A DNA stretch of 64,000 bases from Candidatus Daviesbacteria bacterium. GTDB lineage: Bacteria; Patescibacteriota; Microgenomatia; Daviesbacterales; UBA10151. This document shows positions 49,391 through 62,231 of this stretch, piece by piece. Position 1 is the first letter of the stretch, and the number at the start of each line of letters is the position of its first letter. Both the position numbers and the translations under genes were made by a program. Under the pieces are notes generated by a model. That model was not told where the DNA came from and searched no databases. It worked only from the letters and a program-made list of their open reading frames with translations. The DNA is taken from positions 7,497-71,496 of the forward strand of contig JACOXD010000010.1 in assembly GCA_016176465.1 (NCBI GenBank), read 5' to 3'.

Positions 49391-49663
49391 ATGGCATATA
49401 GACCAAAAGATACTCAAGAAAGAATTGTTCATAGGTTAAAAATAGCTAAAGGTCATTTAGAAAAGGTTATCAAGATGGTTGAGGATGACTGCTACTGCAT
49501 TGATGTTCTCCACCAATCTCAAGCTGTTCAAAAAGCATTAAGAGAAACAGATAACCTCATGCTAGAAAATCATCTTAAAACTTGCGCTATGGATGCCATA
49601 GGTAAAGGTAGAAAAGAAGAAGCAGTTGCTGAAGTGATCCAGGTATTTAAGAAAATGTCTTAA
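49391..49663 (+). CDS. csoR: Copper-sensing transcriptional repressor CsoR/RcnR family
   Basis: 90 aa; RL.RI.GH...V.KM.ED..YC.DVL.Q..AV..AL helix pattern with conserved Cys/His. Confidence 0.8.
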   Translation: MAYRPKDTQERIVHRLKIAKGHLEKVIKMVEDDCYCIDVLHQSQAVQKALRETDNLMLENHLKTCAMDAIGKGRKEEAVAEVIQVFKKMS

Positions 49664-49786
49664 AGAAAGGAGCAGATATGTGCCCTAATTGCGGTTAAGT
49701 AAACTATGACACCAGATAAGAACCTGCTTCGCAGAACCTTGCCTTTTTGACTAGCGTCAAAAACGTAAAATTTTAGTTTTAAAATT

Positions 49787-50149
49787 ATGGAATTAGATAA
49801 GATTTTTGTAGCACTATTTAGTTTAGGAGGTATTCTATTTACTTATTGGTTTTTCTTAATGAGAAATGAAAAGGAGGTAGCTGTTACCTCTGATTCTATA
49901 GATATTACAGTTGAAGGTGGTTACCAACCAGAGGTTATATCTATTCCCAAAGGAAAAACTACCAAGCTTAATTTTCTCAGAAAAGATCCTTCCAGTTGCT
50001 TAGAAGAAGTAGTTTTAGGAGATTTTAAAGTTAGAAAAACACTACCTCTAAATCAAACTGTAACCATTCCGATTACTCCTCAAAAAGAGGGTGAATATGT
50101 TTTTAGCTGTGGAATGAACATGTTCCATGGAAAGATAAAGGTTGTCTAA
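49787..50149 (+). CDS. Membrane-anchored cupredoxin-like domain protein
   Basis: N-terminal TM, C-terminal FSCGMNMFHGKIKVV; paralogous to C-terminus of 62235-63275. Confidence 0.55.
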   Translation: MELDKIFVALFSLGGILFTYWFFLMRNEKEVAVTSDSIDITVEGGYQPEVISIPKGKTTKLNFLRKDPSSCLEEVVLGDFKVRKTLPLNQTVTIPITPQKEGEYVFSCGMNMFHGKIKVV

Positions 50150-50150
50150 T

Positions 50151-50300
50151 ATGAGTAAAAGTAAATTATATACCTGTCCTGAATGTAGATTCTCTTATAA
50201 AGATAAGGCTTTAGCTAAAAAATGTGAGGCTTGGTGCAAAAAGTACAATAGCTGTAATTTAGAAATTACAAAATACTCAGTAAACAGGGAGGTGTTGTAA
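50151..50300 (+). CDS. Small Cys-rich protein (49 aa; CPEC...C..WC...SC) between cupredoxin gene and copA
   Basis: ORF below track threshold; ATG 1 nt after upstream stop; 3' end supplies SD for copA. Confidence 0.4.
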
Positions 50301-50305
50301 AAAGT

Positions 50306-52735
50306 ATGCCAGCAGTGAGCAAGCTCTCTCCTTTGGAGATAAAAAGAACATTTTCAGTACAAGGAATGCACTGTGCTTCCTGCGTGAGGCTTATTGAAAG
50401 AGCTTTGAGTAGAACTAATGGCATATCAGAGGCAAATGTTAATCTTGCAACTAACAAAGCCACCATCACTTATGATCCTAAAAGTGTTAATGATGAGCAA
50501 ATAGAATCTTCTGTATCCAATATAGGTTATAAAGCATTATTAGACGAGGAAGTTAAATCAGAAGATGATGAGAAAAAAGAAAAACAAAAAGAATTAAGAA
50601 AGTTACAGCATAAAGTTGGTATAAGTTTATTTTTAGGATTACTAATTTTATGGGGTTCTTTTCCGGGTTTAATGAATACTGCCCCAGCTATTTTAAGAAA
50701 TTTTTGGATACAGCTTCTCCTTGCTACCCCAGTTCAATTTTGGGCAGGTTTAGATTTTTATAGAGCTACTATTCCAGCATTAAAACATAGAACAGCTAAC
50801 ATGGACACTTTAGTGGCAATTGGTACAACTGTCGCTTATAGTTATTCAGCTTTTGTCACAGCCCTTCCTCAGGTAGTTAAAAGTATTGGTATTGATCCTC
50901 TCCCTTACTTTGATGTGGCAACTATAATTATTGGTTTAATACTTCTTGGTAGATATTTTGAGGCTAAAGCTAAGGCTGGTACGTCTGAAGCAATTAAAAA
51001 ACTAATAGGTTTGCAGGCAAAAACAGCCAGAGTTTTGAGACTCTCCTCTGTCATCTCGAACGATAGTGAGAGATCTGCAGATTCTAATCTAGAGATTTCT
51101 CTCCGCCAGCTGGCGGATCGAAATGACAAAAGTGAAACAAGTGATGAGAGCAAATATTTAGAAGTAGATATTCCTATAGATCAGGTGGTTATAGGAGATA
51201 TCATTAGAGTACGTCCTGGAGAAAAAATTCCAGTTGATGGAGAAATTTTGGAGGGAGAATCCTCAATTGATGAATCAATGATTACGGGAGAAAGTATTCC
51301 AGCTGACAAAACTAAGGGCGATACAGTCGTAGGTGCAACAATTAATAAATCAGGAACATTTACTTATAAAGCTACCAAAGTAGGACAAGAGACTATGCTT
51401 GCCCAAATTATTAAACTTGTTCAAGAAGCTCAGGGTTCAAAAGCTCCTATCCAAAGAATTGCAGATCTTATTTCCTCTTACTTTGTACCTATTGTCATAA
51501 TACTTGCTTTTGCTACCTTTGGTATCTGGTATGTATTTGGTCCAACCCCAGCTCTTTTATACGCACTTCTAAATACTGTAGCAGTTTTAATTATTGCCTG
51601 TCCTTGTGCCATGGGACTGGCTACACCAACAGCTATTATGGTAGGTACAGGAAAGGGTGCAGAGCATGGAATTTTAATTAAAGATGCAGAAAGTTTAGAA
51701 ACTGCCCACAAAATTAAGACGGTCATCTTTGATAAAACTGGAACTTTAACAAAAGGAAAACCAGAAGTGACAGATATCATTGCGAGGAGTGAAATGATGA
51801 AGCAATCTATAAAGAGAAGATCGCCACGCTTCGCTCGCGATGGCATACTTCGTTTGGCTGCTTCAATAGAAAAAGGCTCTGAACATTCTTTAGCTGAGGC
51901 AATAGTCCAAGAAGCTGAAAAACAAAATATTCAACTGGAACCTGTCACAAAGTTCAAAGCTATTGCAGGGCATGGAGTGGAAGGAGTTGTTGATGGAAAG
52001 CAAGTTTATTTTGGAAACCGAAAATTAATGGAAAGAGAAAAAGTAAGAATCCTAAAACTTGTTCAGGATGACATAGAAAGGTTAGAAAGTGAAGGTAAAA
52101 CTGTAATGATATTAGCAACCTCCTCCCGTCATTCTGAGCGAAGCGAAGAATCTCAACTTATTGGTCTTGTGGCTGTAGCAGATACCGTCAAAGATACTGC
52201 TAAAGAAGGTGTAAAAGCTTTGCAGAAAATGGGTATAGAAGTTGTTATGATCACTGGAGATAACACAAGAAGTGCTAAAGCTATTGCAGATCAGGTAGGT
52301 ATTAAAAGAGTTTTGGCAGAAGTACTACCAGATCAAAAAGAAGCTGAAGTAAGGAAGATTCAAGCGGAGGGCAAAAAAGTGGCAATGGTTGGAGATGGGA
52401 TTAATGATGCACCCGCCTTAGCAGCAGCAGATATTGGAATAGCTATGGGAAGTGGTACGGATGTGGCAATTGAGGCAGCGGATATTACCTTAATAAATAA
52501 GGACCTTAAATCTGTAGCTCAAGCTATTAACCTCTCCAAAAAGACAATGAGAACTATAAAATTAAATCTTTTTTGGGCATTTGGCTATAATGTTTCACTG
52601 ATTCCTGTAGCAATGGGAGTTTTATATCCTTTTTGGGGAATATTGTTAAATCCAATCTTTGCCTCAGTTGCTATGGCCACAAGTTCTATATCAGTTGTTG
52701 GAAACTCATTACTTTTAAAAAGAGTAAGGATTTAA
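50306..52735 (+). CDS. copA: Copper-translocating P1B-type ATPase
   Basis: N-terminal HMA GMHCASC, CPC motif [26 protein letters not shown]; contains at least three in-frame low-complexity/palindromic inserts. Confidence 0.9.
51040..51140. repeat. ~100-bp in-frame palindromic insert in copA (includes perfect 14-bp palindrome CCGCCAGCTGGCGG) encoding ~35 aa [36 protein letters not shown]
   Basis: Segment has no counterpart in canonical CopA between TM4 and the actuator domain. Confidence 0.5.
51816..51846. repeat. In-frame GC-rich repeat (reverse orientation, CGCTTCGCTCGCG) in copA N-domain encoding ~[11 protein letters not shown]
   Basis: Shares core with recX insert. Confidence 0.5.
52128..52154. 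repeat. In-frame repeat GTCATTCTGAGCGAAGCGAAGAATCTC in copA encoding [10 protein letters not shown]
   Basis: 29/32 identical to 56521-56552; GTCATTC head shared with element at 297. Confidence 0.6.
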
Positions 52736-52736
52736 A

Positions 52737-53324
52737 ATGAAAGCATTACCTTCAAAGTTTATTTTAACAAAAAAACCTAAGGAATATTTAAAACAAGGGC
52801 TAACTCATTGTGGTGCTTACTCTGTAAAAGCTATTATAGAAGCATTTGATAAAGACTACAAAAAAGATCCAAGAGATTATCACACTTTTTGGTTAAATAG
52901 ATTAATAGGTACAGGGCTATGGAGATCTTATTATGTGGATATATTAAAATCATTTGATTTAAACGCAAAAGCCAAAGAAGCTAAGAGTCTAACAGACAAA
53001 GAACATTTAGATTTACTTAAGCAATTATTATCCACTAATAATCCTGTGATGATCTATGTTGGGAATGGTTATACAAAAACTGGTGAATACAATAAGCTGC
53101 GAGCAGCACTAGTTGGTCATTGGGTCACTCTTTGGGGTTATTCTGATTCAGAACAAGTATTTTATGTATATGATTCTGCTGCCCCAAAAAAGTTATACGA
53201 TAATGTTCCAGTCGGTAATAAAAAAAGAACTTATGAGCAAATATTAAGAGATTGGAAGGGTGCAAAAATTACTAAATTTATTTGGCCCTGGGAATATTTC
53301 TATATAGAAGTAAAAAATCAATGA
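52737..53324 (+). CDS. Papain-like (C39-like/BtrH-like) cysteine peptidase domain protein
   Basis: Candidate catalytic Cys in LTHCGAYSV and His in GHWVTLWGY; weak. Confidence 0.4.
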   Translation: MKALPSKFILTKKPKEYLKQGLTHCGAYSVKAIIEAFDKDYKKDPRDYHTFWLNRLIGTGLWRSYYVDILKSFDLNAKAKEAKSLTDKEHLDLLKQLLSTNNPVMIYVGNGYTKTGEYNKLRAALVGHWVTLWGYSDSEQVFYVYDSAAPKKLYDNVPVGNKKRTYEQILRDWKGAKITKFIWPWEYFYIEVKNQ

Positions 53325-53602
53325 AAAAACATTTCTTACTATTTTTTCTAGATGATTTTCATCAAGGGGCTATGAATCATTTAATACATTTTGTGGGTTT
53401 CACAGTTTTAGGATACGGATTAGGAAAACCAAGTTTATTTTTAATAATACTCTCTCCTTTTATAATGGAATCAGGACATATTTATAATTATTTAACTGGA
53501 AGACATAAAGAGCTAGCTATAAAAATAATTCCTTTACAGCTTTTAGCATGGGTTATATTTGTAGGCATCGGCTATTTAATTGCTAATTTTTTTGGATACT
53601 AA
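53321..53602 (+). CDS. Small His-rich membrane protein (3 TM)
   Basis: ATG overlapping upstream stop (ATGA); His clusters HQGAMNHLIHF, ESGHIYNY. Confidence 0.4.
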   Translation: MKKHFLLFFLDDFHQGAMNHLIHFVGFTVLGYGLGKPSLFLIILSPFIMESGHIYNYLTGRHKELAIKIIPLQLLAWVIFVGIGYLIANFFGY

Positions 53603-53834: not shown

Positions 53835-53873
53835 TTTGACATCTGAATGCAGGGATACTACACTTAGTAGTAG
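53835..53873 (+). promoter_or_regulatory. Promoter TTGACA-17-TACTAC with operator palindrome TACTAC-ACTTA-GTAGTA (copy 1)
   Basis: Same palindrome at 58048 and 61442, each ending at a start codon. Confidence 0.55.
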
Positions 53874-53894: not shown

Positions 53895-54941
53895 ATGAAC
53901 AAAATACTAATTCTTATAGTTCTATTAATCGTATCAGCAGCAGGGATATTTTTGTATATAAATAGATTTCAAAAACCAGTTGAAGTCTCTCAAGAGGTCT
54001 TGAATAAACTTAATGAAAATAAACCTACTCTTTCCCAAGATGAGGATAGGTTTTTAAATCTGCTTGAGCAAAACGCAGTCTCAGGTGGTCCTCCAAAAGA
54101 TGGCATCCCCGCCATAGATAAACCTCAATATACAACTGCTGCTGAAGCTGATTCTTGGCTTTTACCAAATGATGTTGTTTTTGGAATAGATTACCAAGGT
54201 TTTGTTGCAGCATACCCTCAAAGGATTTTAGTTTGGCATGAAATATTAAATGATCAAATAAACAGACAAAAGGTATCTATTAGTTATTGTCCTCTAACTG
54301 GCACTGCCATTGGTTTTGAGGCTTCAGTAACTAAAGATCTAGATTCATCCTTTGGAGCATCAGGAAAGTTGGTTAACTCTAATTTAATTATGTATGACAG
54401 AATTAGTGATTCCTACTGGCCTCAAATTTTAGGTAAAGCCATTAATGGTCCAGCTAAGGGGAGGAATTTGCAAGAGTTTCCAGTAGTTTGGACAACATGG
54501 GATAAATGGAAAACAAAGTTTCCAGAAACAAAAGTACTTTCTAAAAATACTGGATTTGTTCGTAACTATGATGTTAATGGTGATCCCTATGGATCATATC
54601 TTAGAGAAGATAAAGGATATTATGCTTCTGACAGGCTAATTTTTGAACCGATAAATAAGCAAAGCTTTTCTTCGAATAAGGATGATCGTTTAAAACCGAA
54701 AACAGTAGTAGTGGGAATTCGTGATAAGGATGGTAATGCTGTAGCAATTTTGAAAGATTCTCTGCGCCAACAAAAGAAAATGGAAGTTTCTTTAGGAGAT
54801 AAAGTGGTGGTAGTTGATTATGATCAAAGCCTAGATTTTTACCAAGCATCTGTAAAAGATACAAAAGAAGCGATTAATGCTTTTGATGCTATGTGGTTTG
54901 CCTGGGTAGCATTCTATCCCAATACTAAGTTAATAGAATAA
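53895..54941 (+). CDS. DUF3179 domain protein
   Basis: N-terminal TM; conserved SYCPLTGT block. Confidence 0.55.
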   Translation: MNKILILIVLLIVSAAGIFLYINRFQKPVEVSQEVLNKLNENKPTLSQDEDRFLNLLEQNAVSGGPPKDGIPAIDKPQYTTAAEADSWLLPNDVVFGIDYQGFVAAYPQRILVWHEILNDQINRQKVSISYCPLTGTAIGFEASVTKDLDSSFGASGKLVNSNLIMYDRISDSYWPQILGKAINGPAKGRNLQEFPVVWTTWDKWKTKFPETKVLSKNTGFVRNYDVNGDPYGSYLREDKGYYASDRLIFEPINKQSFSSNKDDRLKPKTVVVGIRDKDGNAVAILKDSLRQQKKMEVSLGDKVVVVDYDQSLDFYQASVKDTKEAINAFDAMWFAWVAFYPNTKLIE

Positions 54942-54942
54942 A

Positions 54943-55506
54943 ATGTTAGCGTTATTTTTATCAATAATTACACAGAGAAAATTTTTCTTAGTAGCCTTGA
55001 TTGTTTTTGTGGTATATATTCTAATTTATTTAGCTGCAGTAGGACATTTGATCTTCACATCCCGCATGGAGCCAGCTTATTCATTTTTAGAAGTAAAATT
55101 CTTGACAAACTGGCAACAACTTCTACTGCGACAAAGGTCACCTTTTTTGTTTGAAGCAATTGGGGCAATCTATATAGGTCCCAATATCAAACTATTTCTC
55201 TCAATTCCTAACTTGATACTTGCTTCAGTGTTAGGATTTCTTGTCGGATCTAACTTTGCCTTAAGTTATTATAACTTTAAGAGATTAGGGTTATCAGGTG
55301 GAAAAGGAGCAGTTGCACTTTTGGGAACCATTCCGGCTATTGTTTCGGGAAGTGTTTGTTGTGTTCCTACTCTGATTCTGGTGCTAGGATTACAATTAAC
55401 AGCTACTTTAGCCACAGCGTGGTCTTTTTTTATTCCACTTTCAATAATCCTGCTTATTTTAAGTCTAGTATGGTCTGTAAAAAGAATTGAAACTGGAAGA
55501 TTGTGA
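54943..55506 (+). CDS. Membrane protein with MerT-like intramembrane Cys-Cys motif (GSVCCVPTLILVLG)
   Basis: 4-5 TM; CC pair in TM resembling MerT TM1 (TCCLGPLVL). Confidence 0.4.
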   Translation: MLALFLSIITQRKFFLVALIVFVVYILIYLAAVGHLIFTSRMEPAYSFLEVKFLTNWQQLLLRQRSPFLFEAIGAIYIGPNIKLFLSIPNLILASVLGFLVGSNFALSYYNFKRLGLSGGKGAVALLGTIPAIVSGSVCCVPTLILVLGLQLTATLATAWSFFIPLSIILLILSLVWSVKRIETGRL

Positions 55507-55522
55507 GGGGAGGTGAAGAATA

Positions 55523-55771
55523 ATGGCAAAAGTAAAAGTTTATTCAATAACAACGTGTCCATATTGTCATATGCTCAAAGAATATTTAAAGGAGAAGAAT
55601 GTAGCTTTTGAAGATATAGTTCTTGACTACAGTCCCGATAAGGCAGTCGAGGCTATTCACATATGTCAGTCAATGGGTGTCCCTTGCACACATATCGTAA
55701 AGGACGATGGAAAGGAAGTTGCCATCTTGGGATTTGACAAAGAAGCAATAGATCGCGCACTCGGACTGTAA
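55523..55771 (+). CDS. Glutaredoxin/NrdH-like redoxin (CPYC)
   Basis: 82 aa; VYSITTCPYCHMLKEYL. Confidence 0.75.
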   Translation: MAKVKVYSITTCPYCHMLKEYLKEKNVAFEDIVLDYSPDKAVEAIHICQSMGVPCTHIVKDDGKEVAILGFDKEAIDRALGL

Positions 55772-55804
55772 TGGAGGGAGGTGCAAAAGGTTATTAATAA
55801 AAAC

Positions 55805-57193
55805 ATGAATAACAAATATGATGTTATTGTAATTGGGGGAGGATCGGCAGGGTTTTCTGTTTTGGAGCAGATTGCCCATAAAGGCTTAAAGATTGCCCTG
55901 GTGGAAAATAGAAAATTGGGAGGATCTTGTCCTAATTTTGCCTGTGTACCCTCTAAAGCTTTAATCAAATGTGCTGAAGTTCTACACACAGCTTTGAATG
56001 CTGATAAATTTGGTATAAATGTTTCTAATATAGGATTTGACTGGAAAAGAGTACAAGAATTTAGAGCAGGTAAGGTAGCTAATACTGCTGCTGCAGAGTC
56101 TGAACAAGATTTAAAAGAAAAAGAGGTTGATCTTATTTGGGGCACTGCCAAGTTTATTTCAGCTTCTGAGATTGAAGTAGATGGGAAGATTTATTCAGCT
56201 GATAAGTTTGCCATTACCACCGGCTCAAGGCCTTTGGTTTTACCAATTGATGGTTTGGAAGAGATTGGTTTTTTAGATTCTGATCAAGGTCTGCAAATAG
56301 ATAAATTGCCTAAATCCTTAACTATACTAGGTGCTGGGCCTGTGGGAATTGAAATAGCTCAGATGTTTGCCAGATTTGGGGTCAAAGTAGCAGTGATCAA
56401 TAGAGGTGGACAGATACTTGGTAGAGAAGAACCAGAAGTGGCAAATCTCGTTCAGGGATTTTTAGAAAAAGAGGGAGTGGAGTTTTTATTAAATGCTCAA
56501 GTTAAAAAAGTGATGCTTCAGCGTCATCCTGAGCGCAGCGAAGGATCTCAAAATCTGAAGCTACTGGAGATAGAAGTCAGTGGGCAGAAAGGAACAATGG
56601 AAGTGGAGCAAATTCTGGTTGCTCCAGGTAGGATTCCCAATATTGACATGCTTGATCTTAAAAAAGCTGGAGTGAAAACTTATGAGAGAGGAATTGTGGT
56701 TGATGAGTACATGCAGACCTCACAGCCTCACATCTATTCTGCTGGAGATGTGGCAGGAATCATGCTTTTTACCCATGCAGCATCTTATGAGGGCTTTATT
56801 ATTGGACAAAACCTCTTGGGCAACAAAATGGAGGTAGATCATAAGGTGATACCAAGAGGAACGTTTTCTGATCCGGAGGTAGGTAGCGTGGGAATAATGG
56901 AAAAAGAGGCCAGGGACAAGGGTTTGAAAGTACAAACTGCTTTGATGGATTATACAGGAGGGAGAGGAGATATCCAGGATGACCCCCTAGGATTAACTAA
57001 GGTGACTGTTGATGCTAAAACCAGACAAATCCTTGGGGCATCAGTAGTGGGTAGAGGCGCTGCTGAGTTTGTGCATATGATAGCCATGGCCATGCATCAT
57101 AAAATTAAAGTTGATGATTTAGATACTCTTGTTTATGCCTTTCCCACTTATGCAGAAGGGTTAGCTGGAATTACTTCCTATCTTAAGGATTAG
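55805..57193 (+). CDS. Class I pyridine nucleotide-disulfide oxidoreductase (MerA/Lpd-like; lacks NmerA and C-terminal Cys pair)
   Basis: GGGSAGF, redox CxxxxC GGSCPNFACVPSK, HPxE-type dimer interface; ATG 55805 preferred over GTG 55781; carries in-frame repeat at 56514-56559. Confidence 0.8.
   Translation: MNNKYDVIVIGGGSAGFSVLEQIAHKGLKIALVENRKLGGSCPNFACVPSKALIKCAEVLHTALNADKFGINVSNIGFDWKRVQEFRAGKVANTAAAESEQDLKEKEVDLIWGTAKFISASEIEVDGKIYSADKFAITTGSRPLVLPIDGLEEIGFLDSDQGLQIDKLPKSLTILGAGPVGIEIAQMFARFGVKVAVINRGGQILGREEPEVANLVQGFLEKEGVEFLLNAQVKKVMLQRHPERSEGSQNLKLLEIEVSGQKGTMEVEQILVAPGRIPNIDMLDLKKAGVKTYERGIVVDEYMQTSQPHIYSAGDVAGIMLFTHAASYEGFIIGQNLLGNKMEVDHKVIPRGTFSDPEVGSVGIMEKEARDKGLKVQTALMDYTGGRGDIQDDPLGLTKVTVDAKTRQILGASVVGRGAAEFVHMIAMAMHHKIKVDDLDTLVYAFPTYAEGLAGITSYLKD
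56514..56559. repeat. In-frame repeat GCTTCAG-CGTCATCCTGAGCGCAGCGAAGGATCTCAAAAT-CTGAAGC encoding QRHPERSEGSQNLK
   Basis: Flanked by 7-bp inverted repeat; homologous to copA insert at 52128. Confidence 0.6.
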
Positions 57194-57196
57194 CAT

Positions 57197-57730
57197 ATGT
57201 ACAATCAACAAAAACTTTTAAAATTCAGAAAGCAAAAAGACGAAGCTTGGAAAGAAGATGCCCAGTCTCCCTTAGCTGAGGAGCAAAAGCGAAGCTTTAA
57301 AGGTCTAAATTATTTTCCTCCTAATCCTGATTTTAGTTTTGAACTAGAGTTAAATAAAAATATCCCTGGTGTGGGTGAGAGAGTAGTAATTAAAACAACG
57401 GGTGGGGATGAGCAGGTCTATTTAAGAGCTGGAAGGGTCAAGTTCAATGTTGAGGGTAAAGAGGTAGAGGCATTAGTGTTTGAAGATCCAGAGCAAGAAC
57501 AGTTTCAATATTATTTATTATTTAGAGACCAAACAACAGGAAAGGAAACTTATGAAAATGGCAGAATGTTACAAATCCCTAAAAAAGGAGATAAGTTAGT
57601 AATCGATTTTAATTATGCATATAATCCCTATAGCTCATATAATAACAATTGGGATTGTCCAATTACCCCTCAAGAAAATATCTTACCTTTGGCAATTCAG
57701 GCTGGAGAAAAGATTTTTAAGAACTTATGA
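57197..57730 (+). CDS. DUF1684 domain protein
   Basis: Pattern F.GL.YFPP...F; WDCPITP motif. Confidence 0.5.
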   Translation: MYNQQKLLKFRKQKDEAWKEDAQSPLAEEQKRSFKGLNYFPPNPDFSFELELNKNIPGVGERVVIKTTGGDEQVYLRAGRVKFNVEGKEVEALVFEDPEQEQFQYYLLFRDQTTGKETYENGRMLQIPKKGDKLVIDFNYAYNPYSSYNNNWDCPITPQENILPLAIQAGEKIFKNL

Positions 57731-57772
57731 ATGTTGTGTATAAAATTCTGCCTGGAAGGGGGTGATAGCTTA

Positions 57773-58000
57773 ATGAAGAAACTTCTTATAGGAGGGGTTG
57801 CAGCTGCAATAATGTATGCAAGCATGGTAGTACCTGTTTTTGCTGATGGGCCAACTAGTCCCAATGTTAGTCCAGTTGTTGTTCCCTTAGCTCAGACAGG
57901 AACTTTTGGTCAAACTGTTTGTAGCGTTCTTGGCCAGGCTAATCTTGAGAATAATGTGGTTTTAACAGTACAGGGGCATGACCCCTCTCACATTAACTGA
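57773..58000 (+). CDS. Small secreted protein (signal peptide)
   Basis: MKKLLIGGVAAAIMYASMVVPVFA signal; SD GGAAGGGGGTGA. Confidence 0.4.
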   Translation: MKKLLIGGVAAAIMYASMVVPVFADGPTSPNVSPVVVPLAQTGTFGQTVCSVLGQANLENNVVLTVQGHDPSHIN

Positions 58001-58069: not shown

Positions 58070-58462
58070 ATGGAAAAACAGCAAAAGGTTGGTAAAGTGT
58101 TAGGTGAGTTAGAATCAGAAGTGATGGAGATAATTTGGCAATCTAAAATGCCAATTTCTGTAAGAACTGTTACTCAAATCTTGCAAACAAAGCGCCAGAT
58201 TGCTTATACAACAGTCATGACCATTATGGGGAGATTAACTGATAAAGGTTTGCTTAAGCGTACAGAATCTGGTAAAGCATATATTTACAGATCAGTCTAT
58301 TCAAAAGAAAAGTTTCTTACCAGAGTATCCCGCCAGATTATTAAAAATTTTGTTGCTAATTTTGGTGACGGCGCAGTAGCTCATTTTGCAGCGGAAGTGG
58401 AAAAACTAGAACCTTCTAAGAGGAAAGACTTAACTAAATTATTAAAGGAGGTAAGAAAATAG
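58070..58462 (+). CDS. BlaI/MecI/CopY family winged-helix repressor (no C-terminal metal-binding Cys motif)
   Basis: LGELESEVMEIIW....VR.V..IL...R.IAYTTVMT...RL..KGLL. Confidence 0.8.
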   Translation: MEKQQKVGKVLGELESEVMEIIWQSKMPISVRTVTQILQTKRQIAYTTVMTIMGRLTDKGLLKRTESGKAYIYRSVYSKEKFLTRVSRQIIKNFVANFGDGAVAHFAAEVEKLEPSKRKDLTKLLKEVRK

Positions 58463-58463
58463 C

Positions 58464-59477
58464 ATGGGTGCTAACAAAGCCTTCTGCATGCTCCTACTCT
58501 CTTTTGTTGTTGCTTTAGTTGGTTTGGGTACTGTGTTTTTTAAAACAGTTCCGCTCCTTCTTTCTCATGCAGTTTATGTTTGCCAAGAGACTTTCTCTAA
58601 TATTCTTTTTGGCATCTCGCATTCTGTTCCTCTTGTTCTAATTACTTTAGTAATCATGGTTTTACTTATTGGTCTTGTAACTTTATTGATACAAGTTTTA
58701 AAAACTAGAAATTATCTTAAGAAGCATATGAGAGAAAGAGTACCCATCCCCTCTAGTTTGATAGAAATAACCAAAGAACTTGGCTTAAATGATAGCGTTG
58801 ATGTTGTTAAAGATAGAAGTAAATTTTCTTTCTGTTATGGATTGATTCACCCTAGAATTTGTTTAAGTACAGGTCTTTTAAGATCATTAAATACAAGAGA
58901 ACTTAAAGCAGTGATACTTCATGAGAGTTACCATGTTAAAAATCGGGATCCACTTAAAATAATCCTTGGCAAAACAGCATCTTTAATGTTCTTCTTTATT
59001 CCATTGCTAAAAGATATTCAAAACTTCTATGCTTTATCAAAAGAGATAGCTGCAGATAAACTTGTGGTCGGTAATGGATATAGACATTCCCTAATTTCCG
59101 TTCTTTCAAAGCTTTTAGTGGCTGGCTCATCTAAATTCAGTGGCGTAGCAGCACTAGCTAGTTTAGATGATTTAGAAAGAAGGATACTGTTGCTCACAGG
59201 TAATCAGAAAAGATCAATATTTAAACCCTCACTGCTCAACATATCAATGTCGGCTTTTGTAGTTTTGTTTTCCCTGGCACTTATGAATACCCCAGCTTAT
59301 GCAGTTTCTGATCATGAAGGGTCTATGGAAAGCTCAATGTTTACTGCGAAGCAGGAAGTTTACTTCATTTGTCCTTTTGGGGATAAATGTGCGCTGTCTT
59401 GCAAGGCAAAGGAAGAGGAGGGTGGAAATTACAGTCAAGACTTAATGTATACACCGATGCATTACACACCAAAATGA
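58464..59477 (+). CDS. BlaR1-like M56 family membrane metalloprotease lacking penicillin-binding sensor domain; Cys-rich C-terminal tail
   Basis: HEXXH HESYHVKNRD; 4 TM; C-terminal CPFGDKCALSC. Confidence 0.7.
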   Translation: MGANKAFCMLLLSFVVALVGLGTVFFKTVPLLLSHAVYVCQETFSNILFGISHSVPLVLITLVIMVLLIGLVTLLIQVLKTRNYLKKHMRERVPIPSSLIEITKELGLNDSVDVVKDRSKFSFCYGLIHPRICLSTGLLRSLNTRELKAVILHESYHVKNRDPLKIILGKTASLMFFFIPLLKDIQNFYALSKEIAADKLVVGNGYRHSLISVLSKLLVAGSSKFSGVAALASLDDLERRILLLTGNQKRSIFKPSLLNISMSAFVVLFSLALMNTPAYAVSDHEGSMESSMFTAKQEVYFICPFGDKCALSCKAKEEEGGNYSQDLMYTPMHYTPK

Positions 59478-60442
59478 ACAGTAAATTAGTTTATATCATA
59501 GTTGCGGTTTTGCTTTTAGGAGGAGTAGTTTTCTTTGCTCAAAAACAAGCGGGTGCTCCGAAACTTAAATCTGAAACAGCACAAAGCTTACCTGCAACAA
59601 CGCAAGAAGAATCTGTTAGGGAAAATTCAACTTATGGTCATGTACACGCTTTAATTTCTAATCCTCAAGATAACAGCCTATTGTTGGGTACTCATGAAGG
59701 TTTGTTTAAGAGTGCAGATGGAGGGAAAACTTTTCAGAAAGTGGGTGTTAAAGGTGAAGTTAATGCAATGGATTTCATGAACTTTGCGTATGACCAGAAT
59801 AATAAAATCATTTATGCTGGTGGACATGATTTGGGAGTTGTTAAAAGCACTGATGGTGGAGTAACTTGGGCAAAAACAGATTCAGGGATTCAAGGTACGG
59901 ATATTCATGCTTTGGCTATGAACCCCCTTGATACTAACAGGTTATATGTTTTCTCAGTAGGTAATGGAGTTTATGGAACTAAAGATGGGGCAAAAAGTTG
60001 GTATAGAATTGATGATGGACCAGCGAACCCATCTGTAGTAGCTTTTGGATATATGGCAACTCCCTCAAGTATGGACCGCGGTATGAAAACTGATAAAACT
60101 ACTAATATTGGCTACCTTTGGGCAGGAACTGGAGGAGGGTTATATAGCTCATTTGCTTGTTTCTGTGGCTGGACTAAAACATCAGGTGTAACAGATAGAG
60201 CCACTATTTATACACTTGCTCCTGATCCAATAGACAAAAGTAGTATGCTTGCAGGAACCAAAGATGGTATTTACAAAACGACTGATGAGGGGAGAAATTT
60301 TACTAAGATAAGTGATATTAAAGACATTGCTGCCCTTAATTTTAATACATCTAATCCTAAAACAATTTATGCTGCTACTGCCGATGGTGCGATTTATAGA
60401 AGTGATGATGAAGGTAAGAATTGGAGTAAAGTGAATGAATAA
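59474..60442 (+). CDS. Ycf48-like/BNR-repeat beta-propeller protein, membrane-anchored
   Basis: Repeated S.DGG.TW / T.DG..W blades; ATG overlaps upstream stop (ATGA). Confidence 0.55.
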   Translation: MNSKLVYIIVAVLLLGGVVFFAQKQAGAPKLKSETAQSLPATTQEESVRENSTYGHVHALISNPQDNSLLLGTHEGLFKSADGGKTFQKVGVKGEVNAMDFMNFAYDQNNKIIYAGGHDLGVVKSTDGGVTWAKTDSGIQGTDIHALAMNPLDTNRLYVFSVGNGVYGTKDGAKSWYRIDDGPANPSVVAFGYMATPSSMDRGMKTDKTTNIGYLWAGTGGGLYSSFACFCGWTKTSGVTDRATIYTLAPDPIDKSSMLAGTKDGIYKTTDEGRNFTKISDIKDIAALNFNTSNPKTIYAATADGAIYRSDDEGKNWSKVNE

Positions 60443-60671
60443 GCAAAGCTTGTCTTTTGCTGTCGCAAAACGTAAGTTTTTTAACAGCTGTAGGCGCTGT
60501 TTAAACCCCTGGATAATTGCCTTAATTACTGTTGTAGTGGTTGGATTATTAATTTTTCTTCCTATTTTAGGAGTAGCAACTTTGATAGCAGCTCTTCCTC
60601 TGGTAGGTTGTACTGTAATGTGTGGTGCAATGGCTCTTATGATGCGGGATCACAAAAAAGATAAAAGTTAA
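60435..60671 (+). CDS. Small membrane protein with intramembrane Cys cluster (GCTVMCG)
   Basis: ORF, 2 TM. Confidence 0.4.
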   Translation: MNKQSLSFAVAKRKFFNSCRRCLNPWIIALITVVVVGLLIFLPILGVATLIAALPLVGCTVMCGAMALMMRDHKKDKS

Positions 60672-60673
60672 GT

Positions 60674-61414
60674 ATGAGATTGATTTTCCTGCCCATTGTT
60701 GTATTTATTATCTTAGCTGTAACGCTTTTATCGCAAAATTTATTTCCAAAAAATACACTCGAGTCAACTATTGCAAATTGGAATGATGGAACAGATGCTT
60801 TTTATCAGCAGGTTTTAAAAAGTGATGGTGATTGGGTAGATCATGCAGGTGAGGCAGTTTTTGATAACTATCCTGTAAAAAGTATTTCAAAGCTGGAAAC
60901 AGAAAATATTTTGGCACAAGCAAGGCAGCCACAACCACCAGTTTTGGGACTGCATACTGCACCTGACGGAGCAGAAAAATGGATTGAGATAGACCTATCT
61001 AATCTTAAACTTTATGCTTGGGAAGGAAACCGCAAAGTTTATGAATTTTTAATATCAACAGGCCGTCCTGGCTATAACACCCCTACAGGTGAGTTTAGGG
61101 TTTGGAGAAAGGTACTATCACAAGCCTATAAAGGCGGCTCAAGAGAAAGGGGCGATTACTACTACTTACCTAATGTTCCCTTCTCTTTATTTTTCGGTGG
61201 CGGAAATGTTTCTAACTGGAAAGGTTATGCTATCCATGGAGCATATTGGCACAGTGACTTTGGTATAAAAAACAGGAGTAGTGGGTGTGTAAATGTGAAA
61301 CCTGAAGAAGCAGGACTTTTGTACCAATGGGCTGGTCCTGCTATGCCTGCTGGGACAGGAGTTTTAAATTCAACTCCTGATAACCCTGGTGTAAGAGTAA
61401 TCGTACATGATTAA
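60674..61414 (+). CDS. L,D-transpeptidase (YkuD domain)
   Basis: YAIHGAYWHSDFG...SSGCVNV catalytic His/Cys motif. Confidence 0.75.
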   Translation: MRLIFLPIVVFIILAVTLLSQNLFPKNTLESTIANWNDGTDAFYQQVLKSDGDWVDHAGEAVFDNYPVKSISKLETENILAQARQPQPPVLGLHTAPDGAEKWIEIDLSNLKLYAWEGNRKVYEFLISTGRPGYNTPTGEFRVWRKVLSQAYKGGSRERGDYYYLPNVPFSLFFGGGNVSNWKGYAIHGAYWHSDFGIKNRSSGCVNVKPEEAGLLYQWAGPAMPAGTGVLNSTPDNPGVRVIVHD

Positions 61415-61421
61415 TTTCCCC

Positions 61422-61461
61422 TTGACAAGTTAAAGTTTATCTACTACAGTAAGTAGTAGTA
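61422..61461 (+). promoter_or_regulatory. Promoter TTGACA-17-TACAGT with operator palindrome TACTAC-AGTAA-GTAGTA (copy 3) abutting start codon
   Basis: Read directly. Confidence 0.55.
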
Positions 61462-62231
61462 TGGATAAACAGTCAGGTATTCGAATCAACCTTTTTATTT
61501 CAACCCCAATAGCTATTTTAATTGGGTCTGTGATAATCGCTTTAGCTATTCTGGTAAATGGTGGAATCATCAAATTTAAAGGATCAGTTGCTACTAAATC
61601 ACCAACTACTCAAGCAGCTCAAGCTCCAACTGCAACAGCCCCACAAGCTCCCCAACCAGAACCTCAAGCTGGCCCTGTAGAACCCCTAAAAGATGAAGAT
61701 CATGTCAGGGGTGAAAGAAAAGCTAGGATTTTACTTTTTGAATACTCAGATTTAGAGTGTCCCTTCTGTAAAAGATTTCATCCCACTGCTAAACAAATAG
61801 TAGATACCTACAAAGGAGAAGTGGCTTGGGTATATAGGCATTTTCCTTTGGATCAAATCCATTCTAAAGCAGATAAAGAAGCAGAGGCTATAGAGTGTGC
61901 AAATGAGTTGGGTGGTGAAGATGGGTTTTGGAAGATGACAGACAAGATATTTGAGGTAACACCTTCTAATAATGGTTTAAATTTGGAAGATCTGCCAAAA
62001 CTGGCAGGGGAAGTAGGGCTAAATCAAGCTACATTTAAGTCATGTTTAGATAGTGGTAAATACACAGCTCATGTAGAAGAGGATTATCAGGGTGGAATAA
62101 AAGCTGGTATTACAGGTACACCTGGCAATATTCTACTTGATACTAAACTCAATAAGACTAAATTAATACCTGGTGCACTACCCTTTGAGCAATTTAAACA
62201 AGCAATAGATGCTATGCTTAAGGAAGCATAA
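61461..62231 (+). CDS. DsbA-family thiol:disulfide oxidoreductase (CPFC), membrane-anchored
   Basis: FEYSDLECPFCKRFH thioredoxin-fold active site. Confidence 0.75.
   Translation: MDKQSGIRINLFISTPIAILIGSVIIALAILVNGGIIKFKGSVATKSPTTQAAQAPTATAPQAPQPEPQAGPVEPLKDEDHVRGERKARILLFEYSDLECPFCKRFHPTAKQIVDTYKGEVAWVYRHFPLDQIHSKADKEAEAIECANELGGEDGFWKMTDKIFEVTPSNNGLNLEDLPKLAGEVGLNQATFKSCLDSGKYTAHVEEDYQGGIKAGITGTPGNILLDTKLNKTKLIPGALPFEQFKQAIDAMLKEA

Follow-up and report, generated by a model that had tools for sequence, protein, structure and literature searches.

A five-gene operon of thiol-motif proteins in a Candidatus Daviesbacteria bacterium and its possible relation to mer-type metal relays

Introduction

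Can the membrane and cytoplasmic parts of a mercury resistance (mer) pathway be remodelled from other thiol proteins? This question is raised by a group of genes in the genome of a Candidatus Daviesbacteria bacterium (assembly GCA_016176465.1, contig JACOXD010000010.1), of which a stretch of 64,000 nt was analysed (from here: the window). An initial annotation of the window had described a trio of genes at positions 54943-57193, encoding a membrane protein with an intramembrane Cys-Cys motif resembling that of MerT, a glutaredoxin and a reductase resembling the mercuric reductase MerA but lacking its metal-binding cysteines, and had interpreted them as a remodelled mer-type pathway. The motifs on which this interpretation was built, GSVCCVPTL in 54943-55506, CPYC in 55523-55771 and CxxxxC in 55805-57193, are indeed located there, on the + strand.

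Two directly adjoining genes had not been included, one for a DUF3179 protein, which ends 1 nt before the membrane gene, and one for a DUF1684 protein, which starts 3 nt after the reductase gene. Together, the five genes constitute one operon at 53895-57730 on the + strand, wider than the trio, in which two thiol-based modules are joined with the small redoxin between them. The partner of the membrane gene is the DUF3179 gene, that of the reductase gene is the DUF1684 gene, and most loci with the former pair have no reductase gene within 4 kb. Hence, the trio is not a conserved unit, while the idea of a remodelled mer-type pathway retains support from a MerT-like helix hairpin, from MerA genes beside the pair in candidate phyla radiation (CPR)-type loci and from glutaredoxin genes recurring in four loci. 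We tentatively interpret the five-gene set as a relay for thiophilic metals which would resemble MerP/MerT and would be coupled to a cytoplasmic redoxin and a reductase. Functional statements made here rest on sequence, gene context and predicted structure.

Results

Organization of the operon

The operon comprises the following genes:

53895..54941, + strand, DUF3179 protein of 348 aa (PF11376, 288.1 bits, cutoff 27)
54943..55506, + strand, CC-membrane protein of 187 aa, unnamed family (C139-C140 at nt 55357-55362)
55523..55771, + strand, glutaredoxin-like small redoxin of 82 aa (PF00462, 41.1 bits, cutoff 22.9)
55805..57193, + strand, MerA-like class I flavoprotein reductase of 462 aa (C42/C47 at nt 55928-55945)
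57197..57730, + strand, DUF1684 protein of 177 aa (PF07920, 136.2 bits, cutoff 25)

The intergenic gaps amount to 1, 16, 33 and 3 nt, in gene order, and every product carries a thiol motif, namely CPLT, CC, CPYC, CxxxxC and a lone Cys. A 292-nt gap precedes the first gene of the operon, encoding DUF3179. It contains the promoter-like site TTGACA-17-TACACT (53836..53864, + strand), a possible operon promoter that is suggestive by its position only; promoter-like sites were not enriched in the region (33 found, 39.7 expected from shuffled sequences), and neither the promoter nor the terminator scan exceeded the shuffle expectation.

The DUF3179 gene as obligate partner of the CC-membrane gene

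Loci with the CC-membrane gene were gathered from genomes, metagenomes, exact-protein look-ups and plasmids and deduplicated, yielding 47 distinct loci (designated by L numbers). The association counts given here refer to fragmentary metagenome contigs annotated by our own open reading frame (ORF) calls and a phmmer panel. A DUF3179 gene was located directly upstream of the CC-membrane gene, overlapping it or separated by at most 8 nt, in 41 of the 47 loci, and it was upstream in all 26 loci with a total flank of at least 4 kb. Five of the six exceptions are fragments or contig ends; in the sixth (L061), a short variant gene call, a DUF3179 ORF was not detected. DUF3179 is therefore the obligate partner of the CC-membrane gene. 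The hosts comprise CPR bacteria, Beta- and Gammaproteobacteria, Planktophila, Solirubrobacterales, Limnocylindria and haloarchaea, thus including Proteobacteria, Actinobacteria and Chloroflexota. In haloarchaea the pair is encoded on megaplasmids of cultured strains, and it can be located next to insertion sequence elements. In the Betaproteobacterial locus L033 (7879-8241), within an island as in L001, the CC-membrane gene is broken, leaving a 120-aa fragment that stops before the CC motif, next to an intact DUF3179 gene.

In the literature searched, neither DUF3179 nor the CC-membrane family nor their pairing has been assigned a function, and the pair is not among the mer gene repertoire given by Christakis et al. 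(PMC8261052).

The DUF3179 protein has a membrane anchor at its N-terminus and a beta-rich domain that is predicted to be extracytoplasmic. Its AlphaFold2 (AF2) model has a mean predicted local distance difference test (pLDDT) score of 84 and a predicted template modelling (pTM) score of 0.80. A sequence search of the PDB returned nothing, leaving this domain without a relative among solved structures. In an alignment of 36 sequences, H115, E116 and the single Cys132 (nt 54288-54290), the latter within the motif Y-C-P-L-T-G, are invariant. Two reviews place DUF3179 among the selenoprotein families, with the motif UxxC/T (PMC9312934, PMC13188914), which fits the site of the invariant Cys132.

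This site differs between two forms of the family. Members paired with a CC-membrane protein possess CPLT (CxxT), whereas unpaired members (L028:5477-6409; a second copy in L012:17474-18580; L075:2506-3963) possess CxLC (CxxC). It is as if the paired form had lost its second cysteine with the membrane partner providing one. The unpaired genes in L028 and L012 adjoin genes for AhpC/TSA redoxins or glutaredoxin.

Similarity of the CC-membrane protein to MerT

C139 and C140, within the motif GSVCCVPTL, are the only cysteines of the CC-membrane protein. In the AF2 model (whole-model pLDDT 71.6), four long helices and a beta-rich loop (residues 36-86) are predicted, and the motif is placed in a hydrophobic stretch at the junction of the last two long helices (H120-137/H141-183), where the model is least reliable (pLDDT about 50). 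The family is small, with 262 representatives at E ≤ 1e-3 among 1.84 billion proteins, and the label assigned by PGAP is "hypothetical protein". Each of the residues C139, C140 and P142 is shared by at least 90% of 117 family representatives that are 22-60% identical to the window protein; conservation across so divergent a family argues against a chance occurrence of the motif. Homologs of 127-142 aa had hinted at a TGA stop, and hence at selenocysteine, at the CC site; this was rejected, since their gene calls are truncated at the N-terminus and retain the CC motif.

The window protein itself matched no Pfam or NCBIfam family and had no match to MerT (PF02411, NF010314) even at E ≤ 10. Across the family a MerT signal emerges. 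Sub-threshold matches to Pfam MerT (PF02411) were obtained for 49 of the 117 members, compared to 6 for the next family, with a best E value of 2e-4, and four NCBIfam MerT models matched 27, 19, 16 and 10 members. In one member the match spans the CC helix and the following helix, corresponding to MerT profile positions 12-61. The clearest match came from P0247 (627 aa), in which the CC-membrane domain is apparently fused to a complete galactokinase, maybe by a gene-call fusion. For a profile comparison, we built a MerT alignment from annotated plasmid merT genes, which the Tn501 sequence matched at 100%. With hhalign, the CC helix and the next helix were aligned to the first two transmembrane helices (TM1-TM2) of MerT with the CC pairs in register (E 9.4e-4). 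The MerT likeness claimed by the initial annotation is thus borne out at the level of the CC helix hairpin; it is specific and real, although under family thresholds, and fits either remote homology of the hairpin or convergence.

Further cysteines are found elsewhere in the family. At the position of S118 of the window protein, at least 90% of the wider family have an extra Cys, and in proteobacterial members a Cys just past the last helix aligns with Cys76 of MerT. From charge distribution and the model, the S118 position is predicted to lie in a cytoplasmic loop.

Compared to MerT and MerP, as well as MerC and MerF, the pair shares vicinal cysteines followed by a proline inside a membrane helix, an adjacent second helix and a partner at the predicted outer face with an essential Cys; auxiliary cysteines at the predicted cytoplasmic face are present in many members. 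The differences are considerable. The CC-membrane protein has 187 aa, four helices and a beta-rich loop and carries its CC pair in the third helix, whereas MerT has 116 aa and three helices, with the pair in the first. The second Cys pair of MerT (Cys76/Cys82 in Tn501) is missing from the window protein, while many relatives have one extra Cys at the S118 position or in the C-terminal tail. Instead of the 72-aa MerP with its HMA fold and CxxC motif, the partner is a DUF3179 protein of 350 aa with a single Cys, and the pair is widespread outside of mer operons.

The pair within mer operons of related loci

In four related loci, L004, L040, L045 and L069, the pair adjoins a true MerA, judged by a score over the curated cutoff or by the full set of signatures. 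In L004, the gene order is ArsR/SmtB, MerA, DUF3179, CC-membrane protein, a CueR-like MerR-family regulator, a MJ0307-type thioredoxin, BlaI and BlaR. The L004 MerA reached 528.6 bits on TIGR02053 (cutoff 454.45) and possesses the CVNVGC active site and the tail ...KLSCCV. Locus L040 (980-5619) is apparently a complete CPR mer operon in the order ArsR/SmtB, membrane-anchored TlpA-like redoxin, MerC (PF03203, 34.1 bits, cutoff 27.6), MerC-like protein, DUF3179, CC-membrane protein and MerA, the latter starting 15 nt past the CC-membrane gene and ending in LSCCV. In L045, the CC-membrane protein is 85% identical to that of the window. ArsR, a DUF3105::TlpA-like fusion, three small membrane proteins with Cys motifs and MerA are encoded upstream of the pair, and BlaI, BlaR and a DsbA-like protein downstream.

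The three small proteins of L045 (2138-5885) are a 68-aa two-helix protein with the motif VVCCGLP and two Cys-motif membrane proteins of 146 and 174 aa; they had no Pfam match, MerC matches being confined to the two proteins of L040. The L045 MerA has an internal insertion of about 60 residues. In L069, a MerA tail fragment is located 1.7 kb upstream of the pair.

Together, a true MerA gene was present within 4 kb of the pair in 3 of the 26 well-flanked loci, in addition to the one fragment. As true MerA occurs in about 8% of bacterial genomes (PMC8261052), this adjacency appears far above chance, by a rough estimate rather than a computed one. MerA has been documented in CPR bacteria including Candidatus Daviesbacteria, in a lineage that is sister to archaeal MerA (PMC8261052).

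Other oxidoreductase genes also adjoin the pair. Class I reductases other than MerA are encoded beside it in the window and in L034, which has a DedA::reductase fusion and a second reductase. Glutaredoxin homologs were found within 4 kb in four other distinct loci (L036, L049, L051 and L055), in L051 together with a TrxB-like reductase.

A different setting was observed in Proteobacteria. In L001 (3164-8594), L062 and L034 (2967-10942) the pair follows an ArsS-like radical S-adenosylmethionine (SAM) gene (TIGR04167, 464 bits), accompanied either by an oxidoreductase::SelD fusion, which precedes the pair in L001, or by a DedA::MerA-like reductase fusion and DUF547. A YedE-like gene, a GRDB-like gene and a CDGSH protein gene are nearby. 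This is possibly a selenium or metalloid island.

The glutaredoxin, the MerA-like reductase and DUF1684

The active site of the redoxin is C12-P-Y-C15 (nt 55556-55567). On the equivalog model TIGR02196 (YruB-type) the protein scored 63.7 bits, below the cutoff of 88.55.

The reductase is a class I pyridine nucleotide-disulfide oxidoreductase (FAD/NAD(P)H) with the redox pair C42/C47 in GGSCPNFACVPSK (SCPNFAC). An alternative GTG start exists at 55781; the NCBI call corresponds to 462 aa. Sequence and alignment confirmed that it lacks both an N-terminal HMA/NmerA domain and the C-terminal Cys pair: the chain ends in ...GITSYLKD, and none of the 31 proteins of the ortholog group, among which the initial annotation had proposed to look for it, possesses the pair.

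We applied the four MerA signatures of Christakis et al. (PMC8261052, B. cereus numbering) to an alignment with five true MerAs. The redox Cys pair C207/C212 is represented by C42/C47, and position 605 is Phe (AFPTYAEGL), the archaeal/CPR type also seen in CPR MerAs (MFPT) and in the MerA of M. sedula. At Tyr264, the window enzyme and its orthologs have Glu (ESEQDL), in contrast to (E/A/S)KY in all five true MerAs, and the C-terminal pair C628/C629 is missing. Hence, the enzyme is similar to archaeal and CPR core-only MerAs (M. sedula MerA, 4ywo) in its class I fold, redox Cys pair, Phe605, EGL motif and lack of NmerA, but it differs in Tyr264 and the tail pair, in a chain that ends about 12 residues early, in its CPNFAC instead of the CVNVGC active site, in its partner DUF1684 and in an identity of only about 33-36% to true MerAs. 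CPNFAC is characteristic of its CPR clade.

TIGR02053 (MerA) was the best-scoring curated family, with 381.2 bits compared to a cutoff of 454.45. The scores on TIGR01350 (Lpd; 360 bits, cutoff 408.8), on a hypothiocyanous acid (HOSCN) reductase model (252 bits, cutoff 650) and on the RclA model (249 bits, cutoff 740) were also below their cutoffs. The best PDB match was 5x1y and the second Lpd 1ebd. Every ortholog has Phe in place of the catalytic His of the His-Glu dyad of Lpd and glutathione reductase; of the 120 best homologs, 118 have Phe or Tyr there. We therefore conclude from the sequence that the enzyme is MerA-like, not a MerA. Given the absence of Tyr264 and of the C-terminal cysteines, a reduction of thiol-bound Hg(II) in the canonical manner of MerA is improbable.

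Tail-less relatives with roles in stress have been described. Slr1849 of Synechocystis reduces Hg(II) and U(VI) and is functionally tied to glutaredoxin 1 (PMC4307280, PMC8261052), and the HypR-regulated MerA of S. aureus acts in oxidant defence. Like these, RclA and the HOSCN reductase, the window enzyme would belong to the class I reductases of metal or oxidant stress, but none of them has been reported with DUF1684, DUF3179 or a CC-membrane protein.

Close orthologs of the reductase are 53-76% identical, with the next drop to 44%. A DUF1684 gene is located immediately 3' of the ortholog in L028, L029 and L031, and DUF1684 is the constant evolutionary partner of the reductase. A regulator of the ArsR/SmtB type precedes reductase orthologs with or without the pair. 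The window DUF1684 protein contains a single Cys (NNWDCP); by our own reading of the sequence, it has Ser at the first position of Cx7C (S-x7-C) and keeps the second Cys. The only PDB matches were the DUF1684 structures 2lnu and 2lok, which have no assigned function, nor did we find a published function for DUF1684 in the literature searched. The archaeal member HVO_1043 of H. volcanii belongs to a hypochlorite-responsive thiol regulon, and a thiol relay via Cx7C was proposed (PMC9426492).

Surroundings of the operon in the window

The operon sits in a soft-metal stress island with CsoR/CopA on one side and BlaI/BlaR on the other. The flanking genes are:

49391-49663, + strand, CsoR-family repressor
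49787-50149, + strand, cupredoxin-like protein, membrane-anchored
50142-50300, + strand, Cys-rich ORF of 52 aa (CPEC...C...C...C) without family match
50306-52735, + strand, CopA-type P1B ATPase with several low-complexity insertions
58070-58462, + strand, BlaI/CopY-like repressor
58464-59477, + strand, BlaR1-type M56 peptidase

The four upstream genes (49391-52735) form a compact copper operon. Between CopA and the five-gene operon, at 52737-53602, a 195-aa protein with weak, sub-threshold similarity to Peptidase_C39_2/BtrH_N is encoded, overlapped by a 106-aa membrane ORF without cysteines. Between DUF1684 and BlaI (57731-58000) there is an ORF of 89 aa, without family match, whose N-terminus is hydrophobic and signal-like.

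Further downstream in the window, a BNR/sortilin protein, a YkuD transpeptidase and a DsbA-like protein are encoded. The set of BlaI/CopY-like repressor, BlaR1-type M56 peptidase, (YkuD) and DsbA-like protein extends over 58070-62231, and such a set is found directly 3' of the CC-membrane gene in several CPR relatives (L037, L038, L039, L070 and L045). A BlaI gene is located within 4 kb of the pair in 7 of the 47 loci. A search with the query panel detected neither a second true merA nor other mer genes in the window.

A 30-nt near-palindromic element, CGTCATTCTGAGCGAAGCGAAGAATCTCAA, occurs in frame within both the CopA gene (52127-52156) and the reductase gene (56522-56551). The copies are identical at 27 of 30 positions, with 0 matches expected in 100 shuffles. 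The reductase copy encodes RHPERSEGSQ, and the orthologs P0271 and P0278 lack the 8-residue insertion. From its sequence, the element looks like a small mobile repeat that is tolerated within coding sequence.

Discussion

A thiophilic-metal relay

How could the five proteins work together? In the relay that we tentatively favour, the first module would consist of DUF3179 and the CC-membrane protein, acting similarly to MerP/MerT. Anchored on the outer face of the membrane, DUF3179 would capture a thiophilic ion (prototypically Hg(II)) at Cys132 with His115 and Glu116 nearby. The ion would then be passed to the intramembrane pair C139-C140 and from there to the cytoplasmic face. The second module would comprise the CPYC glutaredoxin, the MerA-like flavoprotein and DUF1684. 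The cysteines that most family members have at the predicted cytoplasmic face have been lost from the window CC-membrane protein, which suggests that the glutaredoxin may serve as soluble acceptor or thiol buffer in their place. The NAD(P)H-dependent reductase, with DUF1684, would serve to reduce either the bound species or thiols that became oxidised in the process. It may also recycle the redoxin, with a substrate delivered across the membrane, as the initial annotation had suggested.

Several observations weigh against such a relay. The best MerT score in the family was 21.3 bits, compared to a cutoff of 32.9, the probability given by hhalign for the MerT alignment was only 22%, and the similarity may have arisen by convergence between Cys-Cys-Pro helices. 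The paired DUF3179 subfamily has one Cys (CPLT) where MerP has a two-Cys site. Haloarchaeal megaplasmids carry the pair without mer genes, in L019 it occurs alone amid housekeeping genes for ribosomal and tRNA-modification functions, and any MerA or MerA-like gene was found within 4 kb in only about 5 of the 26 well-flanked loci. The canonical MerC alongside the pair in L040 argues that the pair is no simple replacement of known transporters. The window reductase shows two of the four MerA signatures, and its orthologs occur with DUF1684 yet without the pair.

An electron relay

Alternatively, electrons instead of metal ions could be moved. In a relay of the DsbD/CcdA kind they would pass from NAD(P)H via the flavoprotein and glutaredoxin to the CC-membrane protein and across the membrane to DUF3179. 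The latter would function as a Cys/Sec oxidoreductase outside the cytoplasm, depending on a resolving thiol from elsewhere for its CxxT site, and the role of the pathway within mer operons would be to keep outward-facing thiols of DUF3179 or TlpA-like proteins reduced. We regard this main alternative as rather unlikely, although it accounts for the CxxT/CxxC split, the selenocysteine (Sec) forms and the redoxin and reductase neighbours at least as well as a metal relay does. At the site of the invariant Cys, selenoprotein members of DUF3179 apparently have UxxC/T, and Sec is typically employed in redox catalysis. AhpC/TSA-Redoxin was the most recurrent neighbour family (4 of 150 neighbour ORFs), with such genes beside DUF3179 in L028, L012, L040 and L045. 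The glutaredoxin and TrxB-like reductase of L051 adjoin the pair, and DsbD_TM genes are located near the modules in L004 and L031. The extra Cys of the wider family at the S118 position, in the predicted cytoplasmic loop, would also suit electron transfer. As in DsbD/CcdA with TlpA/ResA, a Cys-containing membrane protein would link a cytoplasmic redoxin and reductase to an extracytoplasmic Cys protein.

Arguments against an electron relay come from the membrane protein itself. None of the 117 family members matched the Pfam DsbD/CcdA families, while MerT matches recur, and instead of six helices with the cysteines on two of them, the protein is predicted to have four helices with vicinal cysteines on one. 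Vicinal Cys-Cys pairs are poor disulfide-exchange centres, and in the trans-membrane electron relays known to us the cysteines are on separate helices. Moreover, a reductase with a buried CxxxxC and without the His-Glu dyad or a flexible tail would not be expected to reduce a protein disulfide. The MerT signal and the true MerA and MerC genes flanking the pair would be left unexplained by an electron relay.

Copper, chalcogens and dihydrolipoamide dehydrogenase

In view of the neighbouring copper operon, the pair could move or buffer Cu(I) at the membrane, with the MerA-like enzyme as an RclA-type reductase of Cu(II) or oxidants and all genes in a CsoR/CopA regulon. At 1.2-4.5 kb upstream, the window encodes CsoR, the cupredoxin-like protein and CopA, and further on, downstream of the operon, a CopY/BlaI-like repressor; in the Solirubrobacterales locus L015 the pair is followed by two CopA genes, L004 contains a heavy-metal ATPase and the CueR-like MerR-family regulator, the reductase has its match to the RclA model, and the invariant His, Cys and Met of DUF3179 could bind Cu(I). 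Nevertheless, we consider a copper function unlikely: P-type ATPase genes are present within 4 kb of the pair in only 2 of the 47 loci, the RclA score is far under its cutoff and under the MerA score, and the 292-nt gap with its possible separate promoter suggests an operon distinct from copA.

It is less probable still that the pair imports a thiolate of selenium or arsenic, within a general chalcogen or metalloid (Se, As, S) uptake, for reduction by the flavoprotein in the cytoplasm. In Betaproteobacteria, a SelD fusion (TIGR03169, 514 bits; TIGR00476, 299 bits) and a radical SAM gene of the ArsS-like type directly precede the pair and a YedE-like Sulf_transp gene is located close by, the order in L034 is ArsS-like radical SAM gene, DedA::reductase fusion, DUF547 and pair, and ArsR-type regulators control the CPR clusters. 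Such a context is, however, restricted to few proteobacterial lineages, and homologs of selD, arsC and arsM did not turn up in the roughly 42-64 kb of the window examined. ArsR/SmtB regulators also control mer operons in Gram-positive bacteria and archaea.

That the reductase is an ordinary dihydrolipoamide dehydrogenase (E3) in a coincidental neighbourhood, as its Lpd score, the second-best PDB match and the automatic naming of some homologs as E3 might suggest, was rejected as highly improbable: the score is below the Lpd cutoff, the catalytic His is replaced by Phe throughout the ortholog group, and neither the 42-64 kb part of the window nor four ortholog contexts, with DUF1684 and ArsR as conserved neighbours, contained E1/E2 genes. 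A firm grouping with E3 enzymes, which would have refuted the initial annotation, is thus not indicated, and in this respect its MerA-like assignment stands.

Implications for mer systems and orphan families

The mercury transporters listed so far are MerT, MerP, MerC, MerE, MerF and MerG. To our knowledge, this list has been stable for years, and mer operons of CPR bacteria are known only via MerA phylogeny. Extending the metal relay beyond the window, DUF3179 and the CC-membrane protein might constitute an unrecognised two-component mover of thiophilic metals or metalloids, Hg(II) in the first place, with an outer-face Cys/Sec receptor and a MerT-like Cys-Cys relay, which was recruited into CPR mer operons and in the window re-coupled to a glutaredoxin and a tail-less MerA-like reductase that jointly replace MerA. 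In this full form the proposal is a doubtful one. The window set would then be a further remodelling of the mer-type thiol relay, with glutaredoxin, the tail-less MerA-like enzyme and DUF1684 in the place where relatives have MerA.

If this is true, the pair would be a new transport or relay component of mer systems, and a first functional handle would be available on two orphan families, DUF3179 and a membrane family without a Pfam or PGAP name. If the pair is an electron relay instead, it would represent a new alternative to DsbD/CcdA. The version found in the window may be regarded as an experiment of nature, which asks what features of MerA can be dispensed with once a redoxin is provided separately.

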